Shown here piece after piece: positions 2,176-14,909 of a DNA stretch of 64,000 nucleotides. Where the stretch lies: positions 1-64,000 of the IMG/VR virus record IMGVR_UViG_3300020399_000003; one strand, written 5' to 3'. This stretch comes from a virus (Duplodnaviria; Caudoviricetes). How positions within the stretch are numbered: position 1 is the first letter of the stretch; each line of letters opens with the position of its first letter. The translations under genes and the position numbers were made by a program. Under the pieces are notes generated by a model, which was given only the letters and a program-made list of their open reading frames with translations, did no database searches and was not told the DNA's origin.

Positions 2176-3918
2176 ATGACTACTAGTATTGATCAGTACA
2201 CTATAGAAACTACATGGTCTACAAGAATTACCGATGATATAGTTCTGGAAGCTATTCAAGGGGATGTACCTCAGGATATGGAAACTAATATCATGAATAC
2301 AATTACTCATTTAAATAATAATAAATGGGTAGATGACAAAGAGATTTATATTAAATTAATGTCTTTAATTCTTATAGATCATAACAGCCGACCTATTCAA
2401 GCTATTGCTACTCAGATAGGACATCTAGCAGGAATTAGCAATCCTACTGATGCTTTCGAATGGGGAATAGTACTTCTTAAAGATTGTAGAGATGTTAATC
2501 TTTATAATTTTCAAAAGAAGGATCATGAATGGAGGGTATACCCTAATTTCACATTAGATAGTAATACTAAGGACAAAATAGCTAAGCTACAGTTCTTACC
2601 TCCTATGAAGAAACAGCCTAAAGATTGGAGAGATAATTATAATGGTGGATGGCTTTGGGAGAATAAGCATTTAGTTCTTGGTAATAAGTTTACCAAGCAC
2701 GAGGAACCACTAGCTTATGATGTTATTAATAAGCTTCAAAGTATTCCTTGGGAAATAGATGCTGATACTTATCTATTTGAAAAGCAGACTAATACTGCTA
2801 TGGATAAGAAACAATTCTTAAGAGTTATAGATCAGTATTTAGGACAACATTTCTATTTTGTATGGAGATATGATTCCAGGGGTAGAAGTTATTCTTCTGG
2901 CTATGATCTTAATCTTCAGACTAATGAATATGGTAAAGCTTTATTATCTCTTCATAAGAAAGAGGTTATCACTCAATTACCAAATCTTTACATTGCTATA
3001 GCTAATCATGCTGGCAAAGATAAGCTTACATGGCAAGAACGTATTGATTGGGTTAGTACTCAAAATCCAGATACTATTGAGTGGGATGAACCTATTCTAG
3101 GTAAGAAAGCTATAAGAGCTCTTAAAGCTACTGCAGAAGGTAAACCTACTGGATATGTAATGTCAGTAGATGCTACAAGTTCTGGGATTCAAATCATGGC
3201 TGTGCTATCAGGAGATAAGCAAACAGCTAAGCTGGTTAATTGCATAGATCCTAATCAACGTCATGATCTATACAATGATGTAGCAGCTATGATGTCTTTA
3301 CAGCTAAAGAACCCAGTTCCTAGATCTATAGTAAAGCAATGCACAATGACGCATTACTATAATTCTAAGGCTACTCCCAGGGGCCTGCTATCTGAAGAAG
3401 AACTGGAAGTATTCTATCAGGTTATTGAAGGTCTACTACCGGGAGCAGAAGAAGTAATGGCTACCATTAATGGATGCTGGAATAATAATGCTGATGCGCA
3501 TTCATGGGTTATGCCTGATGGTCATAGAGTATATGTTCCTGTAGTAGAAGGTATTAATGGTGTATACTCAGATGAAGAATTCGGAGATATTCCTTTGAGG
3601 TGGTACCGTCAAACTAAATCTAATAATTATAGGTCTCTTTGCCCTAATGTTATTCATTCAATTGATGGCTATGTGGCTAGGGAAATGATTAGACGTTCTG
3701 AATTTCAACTAAGTCATATCCATGATTGTTTTGTATTTAACCCTAATCATTTACAGAAAGTATGTCAAACATACAGAGAGATTATGGCTGAATTAGCTAG
3801 CAGTGATATATTCGTTGATATCTTACGCCAAATTACGGGTAAATCGACTTTTACAATCACTAAAGCTAGTACAGATTTAGATAAGGATATTCTTCAAAGT
3901 AATTATATGTTATCTTGA
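2176..3918 (+). CDS. N4-like RNAPII (T7 superfamily), RNAP1+RNAP2 fused in one 580-aa chain
   Basis: YDSRGRSY (DxxGR), IANHAGKDK..W.ERIDW, motif A VDATSSG, motif B RSIVKQCTMTHYY, motif C SHIHDCF in one frame. Confidence 0.9.
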   Translation: MTTSIDQYTIETTWSTRITDDIVLEAIQGDVPQDMETNIMNTITHLNNNKWVDDKEIYIKLMSLILIDHNSRPIQAIATQIGHLAGISNPTDAFEWGIVLLKDCRDVNLYNFQKKDHEWRVYPNFTLDSNTKDKIAKLQFLPPMKKQPKDWRDNYNGGWLWENKHLVLGNKFTKHEEPLAYDVINKLQSIPWEIDADTYLFEKQTNTAMDKKQFLRVIDQYLGQHFYFVWRYDSRGRSYSSGYDLNLQTNEYGKALLSLHKKEVITQLPNLYIAIANHAGKDKLTWQERIDWVSTQNPDTIEWDEPILGKKAIRALKATAEGKPTGYVMSVDATSSGIQIMAVLSGDKQTAKLVNCIDPNQRHDLYNDVAAMMSLQLKNPVPRSIVKQCTMTHYYNSKATPRGLLSEEELEVFYQVIEGLLPGAEEVMATINGCWNNNADAHSWVMPDGHRVYVPVVEGINGVYSDEEFGDIPLRWYRQTKSNNYRSLCPNVIHSIDGYVAREMIRRSEFQLSHIHDCFVFNPNHLQKVCQTYREIMAELASSDIFVDILRQITGKSTFTITKASTDLDKDILQSNYMLS

Positions 3919-3980
3919 AGTTGTTCTTCATTTCTCCTCACCTATGAGTGTGTTTTGTCAAATCCGCACAAGTAGGTATT

Positions 3981-4925: not shown

Positions 4926-5951
4926 ATGTTTGAGGTTAACGCAGTTGAACTAGAACAAGCTCTTATTGAAGATCTAAAAGCAGGTCTTACTCCGATGGTA
5001 GCGTCCAGCCCAGGGATGGGTAAATCAGATATTATTCGTAGTATAGCTAAAACATTTAACCTTAAAGTAATTGATTTCAGAGTATCTCAGTGTGAGCCAG
5101 TAGATATGCAAGGTTATCCTGGCATAACTGATGGACGTATGACATTTCATATTCCTGAGTACTTCCCTATAGAGACAGACAGCATACCCGAAGGGTATGA
5201 TGGCTGGCTCCTATTTTTAGATGAATTTAATTCAGGTAATAAACAAACAGAAGCTGCAGCATATAAGCTTATTTTAGATCGAGAAGTATATAAACATAAA
5301 CTACATCCTAGATGTCTTATTGCCGCAGCGGGTAATTTAACTACTGATAGAGCTATTGTAAATACTCAAAGTACAGCAACTACATCCCGATTAACTCACT
5401 ATAGAATGCGAGTAGATCACAAAGTATGGATCGAGTGGGCTAATGCAAATGAGATTGATCATAGAATTATCTCACTTATTAAATTTAAGCCAGAGATTCT
5501 GCATAAATTTGATCCTCAAACTAATGAACTTACTTTCCCAAGTCCACGTACATGGGAATTCGCATCTAAAGTTATTAAGAATAAATCAGAAATAAATCAT
5601 ATTACTACTGTCAGGTTAGCTGGAACAGTAGGTGAAGGAGCAGCTGTAGAACTAGCTGCCTATTCTGAAATCTATCAGAATTTACCTACAATTGAGCAGA
5701 TACTTGCCAATCCTAAATCAGGATGGAAAGTACCTAAAGAACCTAGTGAATTATTCGCAGTCACAACAATGCTAGCCCACAACAGTACTAAAGATAATAT
5801 TGAAAAACTCATGATTGCTAACGGGCGGTTACCTACCGAGATGCAAGTAATCACGTTAAAAGATATTTATAAAAGAAATCCTAAATTAAAAAAACATCCA
5901 ATAATTAAAGAGTGGACTAGTAAGAACGCTCACATATTATTTGGTAATTAA
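4926..5951 (+). CDS. MoxR-like AAA+ ATPase (N4 gp24-like)
   Basis: Walker A SSPGMGKS, Walker B LFLDEF, AAGN, FPSPRTWE. Confidence 0.9.
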   Translation: MFEVNAVELEQALIEDLKAGLTPMVASSPGMGKSDIIRSIAKTFNLKVIDFRVSQCEPVDMQGYPGITDGRMTFHIPEYFPIETDSIPEGYDGWLLFLDEFNSGNKQTEAAAYKLILDREVYKHKLHPRCLIAAAGNLTTDRAIVNTQSTATTSRLTHYRMRVDHKVWIEWANANEIDHRIISLIKFKPEILHKFDPQTNELTFPSPRTWEFASKVIKNKSEINHITTVRLAGTVGEGAAVELAAYSEIYQNLPTIEQILANPKSGWKVPKEPSELFAVTTMLAHNSTKDNIEKLMIANGRLPTEMQVITLKDIYKRNPKLKKHPIIKEWTSKNAHILFGN

Positions 5952-5958
5952 CCATCCA

Positions 5959-6239
5959 GGCGGTTCGAGATGGAATGTCTCATCTTAAACTAGAATGGAA
6001 TTCAACCCAGCTCAATTCAATAGAGTGGGGTTAAATGAAACGCAATAACATATCTCAAGAGTAGTACCTGAGTACGGTTTAGTTCGATTTAACCAGATTG
6101 AATTCAATCCAGCACAGTAAGATACAATGGAACCAAATATCTCATCGCAATGATTAATAAACCTAGCAGCATATAATAAAATTAGGCTCGGTATTATTAA
6201 ATTTTATGAAATATGATTCAATAATTCAAAATTTAACAA
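5959..6239 (+). repeat. phased RRY-NN pentamer tracts upstream of RAMP gene (candidate guide ncRNAs)
   Basis: 5994-6048 11/11 units RRY; 6071-6140 14/14; 6160-6239 12/16; short remnant 5959-5988; shared 15-nt end motif at 5974, 6044, 6136. Confidence 0.9.
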
Positions 6240-6250
6240 GGAGATTTAAA

Positions 6251-6841
6251 ATGTATGTATCAGCAAAGTGTCATCTAAGAAGTAACAGTAAGTATAGTCA
6301 ATCACGCCCATATCAAGTAGAAAAGAAGCCTCGAGAAACACCGGGAGATTATGAAAAACGAACATGGAGAGAACGTCTCCATCTTAGTTATGAAAACCCT
6401 GAAAAAATTCAAATTCCAGGAATGCAATTTAAGAATTGTATAGCAGAATGTGCTAAGTACATGTCTAGACAAATTCCAGGTAAAGGTAAAACAACCTATA
6501 CCAAGCATTTCGAAGCAGGAATTATGCCTATGGGATCTATGGAACTAGATATCTACGCTAAAGATGTAATTGAAGAAGTAGTATTTGTTCCTTCAAGTGG
6601 AAAACGCGGAGATGGTAATCGTGTTTATAAATCTTTTCCAGTAATTAATAGCTGGGAAGGAGTAATAGAATTCTCAATATTTGATCATACGATTACAAAA
6701 GAAGTATTTATTGAACATCTAATTGAAGCCGGACAGTTTATCGGTATCGGTAGATGGCGACCTCGTAATAATGGAATGTACGGACGTTTTCTTGTTGAAA
6801 AAGTTGATTGGCAAGAAAATGAATCGGCAATCGCAGCATAG
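6251..6841 (+). CDS. solitary Cas7-like RAMP-fold protein
   Basis: AAGGAG before ATG 6251; N-terminal beta strand, IPGMQFKNCIAECAK helix, C-terminal G-rich loop AGQFIGIGRWRPRNNGMYGRFLV. Confidence 0.85.
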   Translation: MYVSAKCHLRSNSKYSQSRPYQVEKKPRETPGDYEKRTWRERLHLSYENPEKIQIPGMQFKNCIAECAKYMSRQIPGKGKTTYTKHFEAGIMPMGSMELDIYAKDVIEEVVFVPSSGKRGDGNRVYKSFPVINSWEGVIEFSIFDHTITKEVFIEHLIEAGQFIGIGRWRPRNNGMYGRFLVEKVDWQENESAIAA

Positions 6842-7132
6842 TTACATGAAATTTAGTCGAGTGCAATGAAATTTAATAAAATATAACGAAACATCTTGTC
6901 GCAATTATTACCCCCTAAAAAATTTAACTTTGGTCGAGTTCGATAAAATTCCATGCAATTTAATTGAATCGAGTATCATATAATATAATTCAACGCAATG
7001 AAATATCACATCTCAAGGATTAAAATATAGAGCACCCAGCAGGACCCAGCATAGTAAGATGTCTTGAAACGGCCTGAAATAGGTCATAATGTAATAGGTC
7101 ATCATGCAACCTAATGCAACCCCATGTAATCA
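6835..7132 (+). repeat. phased RRY-NN pentamer tracts between RAMP and partner gene
   Basis: 6835-6894 11/12; 6932-7006 13/15; 7038-7132 13/19; end motif at 6890 and 7002. Confidence 0.9.
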
Positions 7133-7146
7133 CACAAGGATTTTAT

Positions 7147-7725
7147 ATGAGTCATCCAGGAAACGATAACATCATAGATAATGAAAGGGATAAAATGGAA
7201 ACTCCAGATAACGAACCAACAGTTGATGAGAAAAGAAAACCTTTTTGTCGAGCAATCGAAACTACAGGTTTAATAAAAGAATTAAAAAAATACCGGGAAG
7301 GTGAAGAAATTCCTTACGATGCTTTAACTAAAGCAGCAATGGGAAATTGTTCTCCAGGCAAAATTAAGTATCCTTTTCTTAAATCTGCCAGAGATATTTT
7401 ATTTAAAGAAGACGGAGTCGAATTCAGAGCCATTCCTAATATTGGATTAATGCGAATGTCTGATAAAGATAAACTCAGTAAAGCTAAAAGAACTATACCG
7501 TCTTACAATAGAAAAGCTAAAAAAGATATGCACAGATTGCAAAATACAGATTTTGATAATCTAAATCCTGATGAGCAATTATGTCATAGTGTTCATTTAT
7601 CAATTCTTAACGTTCTTAGATGTTCAACATCTGGAGATAGAGTTAATAAAATTACCAAAGTAATTGCGAATAATGACCAGCCTGAAAGACTTGCATTGGA
7701 AGAAACACTTAAAACATTTCTTTGA
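7147..7725 (+). CDS. RAMP-associated partner protein, unknown function
   Basis: AAGGA before ATG 7147 (alternative ATG 7195 after AAAGGGA); basic; flanked by pentamer tracts on both sides. Confidence 0.75.
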   Translation: MSHPGNDNIIDNERDKMETPDNEPTVDEKRKPFCRAIETTGLIKELKKYREGEEIPYDALTKAAMGNCSPGKIKYPFLKSARDILFKEDGVEFRAIPNIGLMRMSDKDKLSKAKRTIPSYNRKAKKDMHRLQNTDFDNLNPDEQLCHSVHLSILNVLRCSTSGDRVNKITKVIANNDQPERLALEETLKTFL

Positions 7726-7778
7726 TCCGACAGGACCCAATCCGTTGGAATTCGATGCAATAAGACAAGACTTAACAT
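7724..7778 (+). repeat. phased RRY-NN pentamer tract downstream of partner gene
   Basis: gatcc gacag gaccc aatcc gttgg aattc gatgc aataa gacaa gactt aacat: 10/11 RRY. Confidence 0.85.
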
Positions 7779-7788
7779 CGAGGTACTT

Positions 7789-8004
7789 ATGAAAACAGTT
7801 CCAATAGAAGAGTTAGGTATTAATGACGGTACATTTAATGCTCTTAAGAATGCAGGCATTACAACCGCTAATGAACTACACCAAATGAATGATAATAAAC
7901 TATTAGCTATTCATGAAATAGGACCTGTTAGGCGTAAGATTATTAAAAACGCTATAGCAACTATACGTGGAGACCTAATAGATCTACCACCTATTGACTG
8001 GTAA
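7789..8004 (+). CDS. stand-alone RNA polymerase alpha C-terminal-domain-like (HhH) protein
   Basis: IEELGINDGTFNALKNAGITTANELHQMNDNKLLAIHEIGPVRRKII matches the alphaCTD pattern ieeL.ls.R..NcLk.agI.t..dL...e.eLl.i.nlG.ks..eI. Confidence 0.8.
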   Translation: MKTVPIEELGINDGTFNALKNAGITTANELHQMNDNKLLAIHEIGPVRRKIIKNAIATIRGDLIDLPPIDW

Positions 8005-8009
8005 AACTA

Positions 8010-9134
8010 ATGTCTAATGACTTAGAAGGACAATTACTTAAAGCTAAGATAGAGATCATGACTAAGTCAGCATTCATATCTACTATAGCTCTTAGTCTTA
8101 AACATGTAATTACTCCTGATGTCAAAACAGCCGATGTTAATGGCGTAGTTATTAGATATAACCCCGAATTTATTGGAGCACAATCAACTGCTCAATTAGC
8201 TGGGCTTATGGCCCATGAATGTTGGCATGTAGCCTTCCAGCATTTATCACGTAGAAACGATAGAGATCCTATTCTTTGGAATGTAGCAGGAGATTACGTT
8301 ATTAATCATATGCTAATGAAAGCAGGATTCCAGATACCTACTGGAGGTCTAATCGATGCTCAATACGATGAAACATGGTCTACTGATCAAGTATATGACC
8401 ATTTAAAGAAAGACCATCATACCCCAAATCCTGAAACATTAATGTTAGATCTAAATGAAGATGGAGCACCAGAAGATGCAGGTATTGGTTCACCACTAAT
8501 AAGTATAATAGTAAGAGCCAAACAAGCAGCTGAAATGTCTGGTGAAGCAAAAAGGGGTCTTGTTCCAGATGAGATTCTAAGACGAATAGATGAGCTATTA
8601 AATCCTAAACTACCCTGGCAAGTTATATTGCATAAATTTCTAGATCGCAGAGTTAAAGAAGAATATTCTTGGGCTAGACGTAATAGACGATATCACGCAG
8701 ATACATATCTACCTAGTTTACATAGTTATGGGTTAGGTCACCTAACCTTTGCAATCGACACTAGTGGCAGTATTGAAGATAAAGCACTTCAAGAAATGCT
8801 TAGTGAAATACAAGGTGTTCAACAAATATTTACCCCAGAAAGAATGACAATCATTGATTGTGATGCAGTAATTCATAAAATTCATGATGTAGATCAATCT
8901 ACAAATATTTTAAATTTAGAATTTGCTGGAGGGGGAGGAACTAGCTTCTGGCCTGTTCTAGACTATGTAGAAGAACACCCCACACAAGCATTAATTTATT
9001 TTACTGATTTAGAGGGGGAGACTGATCTTGATCCAGTAAACTACCCAGTTATTTGGGTATGTACATCTAATCATGAACCCTCACCAATCGGAGAGACTGT
9101 TTATGTCAACCCAGAGCACTATAATTCTGATTAA
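8010..9134 (+). CDS. metallopeptidase-like + vWA domain protein (N4 gp25-like, DUF2201 type)
   Basis: HECWH (HExxH), NVAGDYVIN, IDTSGS MIDAS, GGGGT. Confidence 0.9.
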   Translation: MSNDLEGQLLKAKIEIMTKSAFISTIALSLKHVITPDVKTADVNGVVIRYNPEFIGAQSTAQLAGLMAHECWHVAFQHLSRRNDRDPILWNVAGDYVINHMLMKAGFQIPTGGLIDAQYDETWSTDQVYDHLKKDHHTPNPETLMLDLNEDGAPEDAGIGSPLISIIVRAKQAAEMSGEAKRGLVPDEILRRIDELLNPKLPWQVILHKFLDRRVKEEYSWARRNRRYHADTYLPSLHSYGLGHLTFAIDTSGSIEDKALQEMLSEIQGVQQIFTPERMTIIDCDAVIHKIHDVDQSTNILNLEFAGGGGTSFWPVLDYVEEHPTQALIYFTDLEGETDLDPVNYPVIWVCTSNHEPSPIGETVYVNPEHYNSD

Positions 9135-14833: not shown

Positions 14834-14909
14834 GCCCTTGTAACTCAAATGGTAGAGTAACTGATGATTAAATCGGTAGTTGGTGGTTCAAATCCACCCA
14901 AGGGCCCCA
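14834..14909 (+). tRNA. tRNA(-like) gene with atypical 8-nt anticodon loop, C73, encoded CCA; isotype undetermined
   Basis: Acceptor GCCCTTG/CAAGGGC, D stem ACTC/GAGT, anticodon stem ACTGA/TCGGT with loop TGATTAAA, T arm GGTGG-TTCAAAT-CCACC. Confidence 0.8.

Follow-up and report, generated by a model that had tools for sequence, protein, structure and literature searches.

In a stretch of DNA of 64,000 nucleotides (nt) from the virus record IMGVR_UViG_3300020399_000003, a recurring 15-nt motif stands at the end of five tracts of phased five-nucleotide repeats, on either side of a gene for a small Cas7-like protein. What is this motif? The stretch, which we will call the window, is bases 1-64000 of a circularly assembled phage genome (73,993 bp, ~35% G+C). 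The original prediction, made from the letters alone, was that the motif is a processing or capping handle that bounds guide units, much as a CRISPR repeat handle does. We propose that the motif is very probably the conserved 3' tail of the guide RNAs of a VIPR system in a marine N4-like phage.

VIPR systems, which are related to CRISPR and became known through preprints in 2026, combine a phage-encoded RAMP protein (Vipr) with guide RNAs (vrRNAs) that contain 9-16 YNNGG repeats and then an invariable 3' tail. (The repeats can also be written as GGY/NN, where Y is a pyrimidine and N is any base.) The authors who described VIPR liken the tail to the repeat handle of a CRISPR RNA (crRNA). The NN bases of the vrRNA recognize double-stranded DNA such that each unit skips one base of the target, and the guides silence competing phages and satellites. 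Some VIPR arrays are staggered, that is, the end of one vrRNA is the start of the next (all from 10.64898/2026.04.26.720920). Cryo-electron microscopy of the system from Escherichia phage SUSP1 found one Vipr protomer per unit, and the filament is capped by the 3' pseudoknot of the tail (10.64898/2026.04.26.720927). In SUSP1 Vipr, two essential residues, D177 and R138, read the guanines G1 and G2, respectively.

The original interpretation is essentially the published concept of the VIPR tail, and it is supported because the motif corresponds to the vrRNA tail, which the VIPR authors themselves compare to a crRNA handle. The kind of system is therefore known; what is variant here is the scaffold of the repeats and an unstructured tail that stays in register with them.

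Pentamer tracts, their tails, and the Vipr protein

A scan for phased RRY triplets (R is a purine) identified seven runs in the window, all on the + strand and all within 5994-7778. Each run has 11-19 units of the form (RRY-NN)n. The tracts occupy two intergenic regions of ~300 nt, which flank an open reading frame (ORF) at 6251-6841, as well as short gaps at the next two genes. Two tracts are perfectly phased, with 11/11 and 14/14 consecutive RRY pentamers; the probability of RRY is 0.122 per position, and p^14 = 1.7e-13. Within the units, positions 1-3 are constrained to R, R, and Y (entropy 0.85-1.3 bits), and position 3 is never a purine. Positions 4-5 are free, with entropies of 1.9-2.0 bits and all 16 dinucleotides seen. 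The most common triplets are of the form AAY (46/91 units), and just 5/91 are GGY. The tracts and the vipr gene are as follows (candidate guide genes are labeled as vrRNAs).

5959-5988, + strand: truncated unit, with 3/4 RRY pentamers and a degenerate copy of the tail (motif 1, 5974-5988)
5994-6068, + strand: vrRNA 1, with 11/11 RRY-NN units (5994-6048) and the tail AATAA CATAT CTCAA GAGTA GTACC (motif 2 is 6044-6058; the extended tail runs to 6068)
6071-6163, + strand: vrRNA 2, with 14/14 RRY-NN units (6071-6140) and the tail AATAT CTCAT CGCAA TGATT ... ACC (motif 3, 6136-6150, which is the best site in the genome)
6160-6239, + strand: degenerate tract without a tail, with 12/16 units, reaching the ribosome-binding site of vipr
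6251-6841, + strand: vipr, a 196-amino-acid (aa), single-domain, Cas7-like RAMP with the C-terminal G-loop GIGRWRPRNNGMYGRF
6835-6931, + strand: vrRNA 4, with 11/12 units (6835-6894) and the tail AACAT CTTGT CGCAA TTATT ACCCC CTAAA AAATT TAAC (motif 4, 6890-6904)
6932-7037, + strand: vrRNA 5, with 13/15 units (6932-7006) and the tail AATAT CACAT CTCAA GGATT ... GCACCC (motif 5, 7002-7016)
7038-7142, + strand: vrRNA 6, degenerate, with 13/19 units and the short-form tail AATCA CACAA GGATT (7128-7142) just ahead of the next gene
7724-7778, + strand: tract 7, with 10/11 units and without a canonical tail, from the stop codon of the candidate accessory gene vap to the start region of the next gene

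The five 15-mers are present exactly as claimed, at 5974, 6044, 6136, 6890, and 7002, all on the + strand. They also keep the phase of the tract, as claimed: each motif opens with the tract's final RRY-NN unit, and two C-initial pentamers follow. The length of 15 nt was too short, as the conserved block continues with a KRATT or GAGTA pentamer (K is G or T) and then an element that ends in ACC. The count of five was also incomplete: all five are genuine, and a sixth tail, the short form at 7128-7142, had escaped the earlier consensus. A unit size of ~70-90 nt had been predicted, and this was roughly borne out; the units measure 60-85 nt up to the end of the motif. The gap from a tail to the next tract is 5-27 nt.

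A degenerate consensus of the five sites matches nothing else, either in the window or across the full 73,993-bp genome. Since this consensus was fitted to its own sites, we also made an out-of-sample test, with a 20-nt weight matrix that was derived solely from related phages (32 tails) and was scored at 147,948 positions across both strands. The top four positions in the genome are the sites at 6136 (27.1 bits), 7002 (26.5 bits), 6890 (20.8 bits), and 6044 (15.6 bits), and the next-best position scores 13.9 bits. The site at 5974 scores just 2.3 bits (rank 114), so we consider it to be a degenerate copy.

We identify the locus as a VIPR system because the (RRY-NN)n arrays flank a RAMP that is homologous to SUSP1 Vipr, with the same parts in the same order. 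In other words, the handle that was predicted to bound guide units beside a RAMP does have a RAMP beside it (the ORF at 6251-6841), and the architecture matches that of VIPR, including the invariable 3' tail. Characterized Vipr proteins are small RAMPs that have a single RRM, a thumb, and a G-loop, and the ORF fits this description. A profile of the Vipr family (28 members) matches one solved structure, which is the "SUSP1 Vipr protein" (PDB 36pp, E = 1.4e-9). The window's Vipr, as a single sequence, aligns to the same structure over the thumb and the G-loop (E = 3e-4). Furthermore, its AlphaFold model (pLDDT 91.4) has Csm3 and type VII Cas7 proteins as its top Foldseek matches (E = 3e-8 to 1e-7, probability 1.0). 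The ORF matches no Pfam family, and its PHROG (4652) is of unknown function. The metagenomic relatives of Vipr fall into over 2,100 clusters at 90% identity; they share many invariant residues as well as a glycine-rich loop near the C-terminus.

The closest known counterparts are type II VIPR systems, which are found in Escherichia phage SUSP1 and in a prophage of Pseudomonas fulva. As in those systems, an invariable element lies directly 3' of a pentamer-repeat tract, and the phage carries arrays that flank a lone Cas7-like vipr gene; a candidate accessory gene adjoins. In contrast to SUSP1, whose tail is ~40 nt long and forms a pseudoknot cap, the conserved core of the window's tail is 10-20 nt long, keeps the 5-nt register, and has no predicted structure. 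The triplet differs as well: it is GGY in SUSP1 and RRY in the window (~50% AAY and ~5% GGY). Non-canonical VIPR arrays, with the patterns GAC/NN, CAC/NN, WGT/NN, and TGH/NN, have been reported from the clustering of intergenic sequences, and like the window's arrays, these have a 5-nt period and a fixed triplet other than GGY and lie beside a Vipr-like fold. The text of that report does not name an AAY-dominated RRY scaffold and does not discuss tails (10.64898/2026.10.21.760802).

The tracts also resemble the crRNAs of class 1 CRISPR-Cas systems, in which a constant sequence, bound at the ends by Cas5 or Cas6, delimits a variable guide on a filament of Cas7-type RAMPs and arrays change by the gain or loss of repeat-bounded units. 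Unlike in those systems, the guide is non-contiguous (2 free bases per 5), the period is 5 nt instead of 6 nt, and the constant element is in the register of the guide. Among the ORFs that we scanned around the locus, the lone RAMP is the only cas-type gene, with no cas5, cas6, cas1, or cas2 and no CRISPR array, and no CRISPR repeat family from Rfam was found at the locus.

We considered and rejected several other kinds of repeats. Type III toxin-antitoxin systems (similar to ToxIN) have near-identical tandem RNA repeats of ~36 nt ahead of an endoribonuclease toxin. These do not fit, as the units here vary in both length and sequence, with just the scaffold and the tail in common, and the protein is Cas7-like. 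RNAs that bind to TRAP-like rings have a similar 5-nt periodicity of triplets, but the protein here is a RAMP. Replication-origin iterons or curved DNA would not explain tracts that are strand-specific with free NN positions, and the template of a diversity-generating retroelement would have a different periodicity.

Tails and arrays in related loci

Via homology to the Vipr protein, we fetched 16 related loci (individual loci are given L numbers below). Phased tracts lie beside the vipr homolog in 16/16 of them. The original prediction could be checked against homologous loci, and we found the motif at the ends of tracts in every close relative that we examined. In the AT-rich clade (Vipr 78-97% identical), 36 anchor matches at tract ends from 7 loci give the consensus AAYAT followed by CAYAT CKCAA KRATT, and the information peaks at the two C-pentamers. 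Across 816 units of this clade, the triplets are 41% AAY, 31% AGY, and 5.6% GGY.

Many tails of the AT-rich clade are followed, after 0-5 nt, by ACCCCYTAAMAAATTTAM, which continues into the first units of the next tract. Thus, the variable tracts are separated by a conserved repeat of ~38 nt, and the tail is the first half of this repeat. In the window, the bipartite repeat is complete only at 6890-6928, and the remaining linkers are shorter versions (such as GAGTA GTACC). Some tails in relatives lead into a T-run (for example, CGCAT TTATT TTTTA). The short-form tail of vrRNA 6 (CACAA GGATT) recurs in L015 and L016.

GC-rich relatives, with Vipr proteins that are ~51-60% identical and with GAC-NN or GGC-NN units, carry in-phase tails of their own. 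In L008, the tail ACCAT CACAA GCCGC occurs three times, while L009 and L010 have the tail GACAA GGGCA GTACC. The GC-rich tails have CAA-G and GTACC in common with 6054-6068 of the window. Because the GC-rich relatives have their own in-phase tails, the tail varies with the clade of the protein, as CRISPR repeats do with Cas proteins. Also, L008 (GAC-NN) and L007 (mostly AGT, but also GGT and TGT) fit the non-canonical VIPR patterns that are given in the text of 10.64898/2026.10.21.760802. In L007, the arrays at 2762-2971 are of low complexity (AGTTA or GGTTC, repeated), so the free positions barely vary; such arrays may have decayed or may not act as guides.

Arrays gain and lose entire units, each a tract together with its tail. 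In L001, whose flanking genes are 97% identical, there are 14 tracts, and the window has 7. One junction of an insertion or deletion is a 9-nt overlap within the linker GTAGTACCT (6061-6069 in the window). This suggests that units are gained or lost by recombination between linkers. A contig from another marine metagenome (run X4) has the same 185-nt difference as L001. Within L001, this difference at 2380-2564 comprises two extra guide units that are bounded by the repeated linker GTAGTACCT.

The individual tracts differ in how widely they are kept. The unit orthologous to vrRNA 2 is present in L001 and has diverged in L011 and L016, and an ortholog of vrRNA 5 is present in L001. Tract 7 is conserved in L001, and a diverged unit is found in L005, L011, L015, and L016. 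The tract at 6160-6239 has an equivalent leader in L011 and shows 1- and 3-nt insertions or deletions in a related strain. The unit at 5959-5988 had been suspected of being a truncated guide, which agrees with L011 and L012: at the same place, after the stop codon of the ATPase gene, both hold a full 12-unit tract with a tail. Within vrRNA 6, there is a 15-nt tandem duplication at 7078-7106 (AATAGGTCATAATGT, 1.9 copies), or exactly three pentamers. This repeat hints that tracts are lengthened by in-register duplication.

Neighboring genes and the phage

Downstream of vipr, the module contains two more genes, and the following genes help to place the locus within the phage.

7147-7725, + strand: vap, a candidate accessory gene (192 aa), with a winged-helix-like domain and then long helices
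7789-8004, + strand: protein similar to the C-terminal domain of the RNA polymerase alpha subunit (alpha-CTD), 71 aa, the third gene of the module (PF03118, E = 9.7e-8, 32.1 bits with a cut-off of 23.8)
2176-3918: N4-type RNA polymerase II
4926-5951: AAA ATPase
8010-9134: vWA/DUF2201 protein

In VIPR systems, the product of the neighboring vap gene is predicted to interact with DNA. The model of the candidate vap product here (pLDDT 72) has a winged-helix-like unit in the order H-E-H-H-E-E (helices and strands). Its best matches in the PDB are weak (E = 0.1-0.7), and all of them are winged-helix DNA-binding domains. The vap family is narrow, with 35 clusters, and the gene follows vipr in all close relatives. 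For the third gene, L011 and L012 encode a 71-aa homolog with PF03118 on record, while L015-L017 have 65-aa genes at the same position with no Pfam match on record. The main text of the VIPR papers lists winged-helix, helix-turn-helix, nuclease, and helicase accessory genes, and an alpha-CTD-like protein is not named there.

All three genes of the module are directly preceded by a pentamer-phased tract (6160-6239, 7038-7142, and 7724-7778), which nearly reaches the ribosome-binding site or the start codon. This layout is kept in relatives (in L011, the leader tracts are at 2415-2489, 3180-3315, and 3894-3948), and in the window, two of the three tracts have no tail. Vipr could bind the leaders of its own mRNA as a form of feedback control.

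In L015, L016, and L017, the module of vipr, vap, and a small gene, together with tailed arrays, lies in another neighborhood, with AAA_24 downstream in place of the vWA/DUF2201 gene of the N4-like relatives. The module may move between phage backbones.

The phage is N4-like, as judged by its early and middle genes. Besides the N4-type RNA polymerase II, these include other genes of N4-like podoviruses: a family A DNA polymerase, a Dda-like helicase, an exonuclease, and a primase. This stretch of DNA is found in marine and seawater metagenomes. Among the phages in GenBank, it has no DNA relative except at the ATPase gene, and the Vipr protein has no tblastn match. The window also contains a tRNA gene (14834-14909; Rfam tRNA, 51 bits), to which ARAGORN gives an unassignable four-base anticodon, "atta".

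How the tail may work

We propose that each guide gene would be a run of about 10-15 RRY-NN units followed by a tail, and that the tail would comprise the last RRY unit, two C-initial pentamers (CAYAT CKCAA), KRATT or GAGTA, and the ACC-ending element. By homology with SUSP1, one protomer of Vipr (6251-6841) would bind each pentamer and sequester its triplet, and the two free bases of each unit would be presented for gapped pairing with the target DNA, which would thereby be silenced. The tail would mark the end of the repeat register. Most likely, it would terminate or cap the Vipr filament instead of being cleaved, and this would set the 3' boundary and the register of the guide. The tail would also delimit the modules through which arrays gain or lose guides.

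Several observations weigh against this proposal. First, tract and tail are not strictly coupled: no such tail follows the tracts at 6160-6239 and 7724-7778, and motif 1 (5974) is preceded by hardly any tract.

Second, we found no secondary structure in the tail: RNAalifold gives 0 consensus pairs in 17 aligned inter-tract repeats. We also folded six stretches (the five guide units and tract 7). The z-scores ranged from -2.4 to +2.2, and only tract 7 (-2.4) was clearly below zero. Because there is no predicted structure, the window's tail does not seem to be a pseudoknot of the SUSP1 type, with the caveat that the folding tools do not model pseudoknots and a weak one could escape. In the SUSP1 clade the tail is a pseudoknot, and here it is unstructured, so the mechanism of capping is not simply transferable.

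Third, the triplet is not GGY, and in SUSP1, changing GGY to AAY, AGY, or GAY abolishes silencing. Variants other than GGY have already been published, however, so the mismatch to the canonical triplet bears on the subtype and not on whether the system is VIPR. In a weak HMMER alignment (E = 3e-4, with residues numbered by hand), SUSP1 D177 and R138 fall opposite R168 and F129 of the window's Vipr, while W178 and R179 are unchanged (W169 and R170 in the window's Vipr). The replacement of both guanine-reading residues would fit with an altered specificity for purines.

Fourth, we found no target for any guide, whether in exact scans of three collections, in related phages, or in the phage's own genome. 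Our queries of IMG/VR were five 22-base patterns with a 1-nt skip (the 3' and 5' halves of vrRNA 2, its ortholog in L016, vrRNA 1, and tract 7), and each had 0 exact matches. One pattern each was searched exactly against the contigs of GTDB genomes and of JGI metagenomes, again with 0 matches. Allowing up to 3 mismatches gave 0 matches in the records of five related phages, and the phage's own genome yielded only a trivial self match at skip 3. When we compared 75 guides from all of the loci to the phage's own genome, the identity of the best match was 0.67-0.68 alike for skips of 0-3, so no skip rule stands out. Because the scans of the collections were exact-only, this null result is no evidence against the existence of targets.

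Fifth, the records from RNA libraries at this locus are assembled contigs from two runs, from which ends, strand, or a single transcript cannot be read. Part of vipr is covered by one contig, which is probably derived from DNA. The second contig spans 7136-7419 in vap, and its loose end consists of the final units and the tail of vrRNA 6 from a relative. We expect that the tracts are transcribed.

If the tail is unstructured, its sequence might do the work of the pseudoknot. More tentatively, then, the in-register tail of C-pentamers could be a sequence-coded stop that replaces the pseudoknot cap: the Vipr protomers at the end of the filament would bind the pyrimidine-N-pyrimidine triplets of CAYAT CKCAA in register, which would set the filament's length and register. 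As a corollary, the tracts ahead of genes would be Vipr-binding feedback leaders, with Vipr on 6160-6239 and 7724-7778 (without tails) and on 7038-7142 (with a short tail) controlling the translation of its own module. We regard this idea, along with its corollary, as possible and on the doubtful side.

Alternatively, the motif might be punctuation that is trimmed from the guide, either a cleavage site for an RNase of the host or the phage or a sequence-specific stop or pause site for the N4-type RNA polymerase II, so that the transcript of the array is split. The short gaps between a tail and the next tract (only 5-27 nt) leave little room for separate promoters, motif 1 precedes the first full tract as a leading repeat would, and a T-run follows the tails of some relatives. 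Also, staggered arrays are known in VIPR (10.64898/2026.04.26.720920). However, the motif does not leave the 5-nt register of its tract, and this suggests that it contacts the same protein filament. Nor is it a general terminator of the phage, because it is found nowhere else in the genome. The scans for terminators and for sigma-70 promoters gave results at the level of shuffled sequences, with no terminator-like hairpin between units, and no Rfam family or ribozyme was found between units, even at E up to 1. In the characterized system, the tail stays in the mature ribonucleoprotein (10.64898/2026.04.26.720920; 10.64898/2026.04.26.720927), and we expect that it does so here. Overall, we think that punctuation is unlikely. 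(An N4-type middle promoter or another general phage promoter was rejected, as the motif and the linker element CCCCCTAAAAAATTTAAC are absent from the rest of the genome.)

It is still less plausible that the motif is a DNA operator at which the winged-helix-like protein (7147-7725) or the alpha-CTD-like protein (7789-8004) regulates transcription of the arrays. Repeated short intergenic sites beside genes for putative DNA-binding proteins might bring an operator to mind, but the copies are all on one strand and in one orientation, are not palindromic, and always fall in the phase of a repeat that is itself strand-specific. Furthermore, the accessory family is narrow (35 clusters versus over 2,100 for Vipr), and the GC-rich loci (Vipr 51-60% identical, with accessory genes that may or may not be the same) keep an in-phase tail with a similar core. 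An operator is therefore a very improbable explanation.

Finally, we give next to no credence to the motif being a functionless relic of the duplications that multiply the units: arrays do evolve by the gain and loss of whole units, and vrRNA 6 does contain a 15-nt internal duplication (7078-7106), but the core of the tail is nearly invariant across phages with 78-97% identical Vipr proteins while the NN positions have near-maximal entropy, and a related core persists at ~51% identity.

If the motif is the tail of a vrRNA, as we propose, then this locus bears on a newly described form of RNA-guided DNA recognition that uses a gapped code. Its A-rich RRY scaffold, which is lethal to function in SUSP1, is found together with the apparent replacement of both guanine-reading residues, and this provides a natural comparison for how the triplet of the scaffold is chosen. 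In the main text of 10.64898/2026.04.26.720920, the maturation of arrays is treated only for staggered arrays and for arrays with ribozymes. The short, unstructured, in-register tail bears on how vrRNAs end, on filament length, and on how arrays mature without a pseudoknot or a ribozyme, in a family of proteins that is large, lacks a Pfam model, and is frequent among marine viromes.

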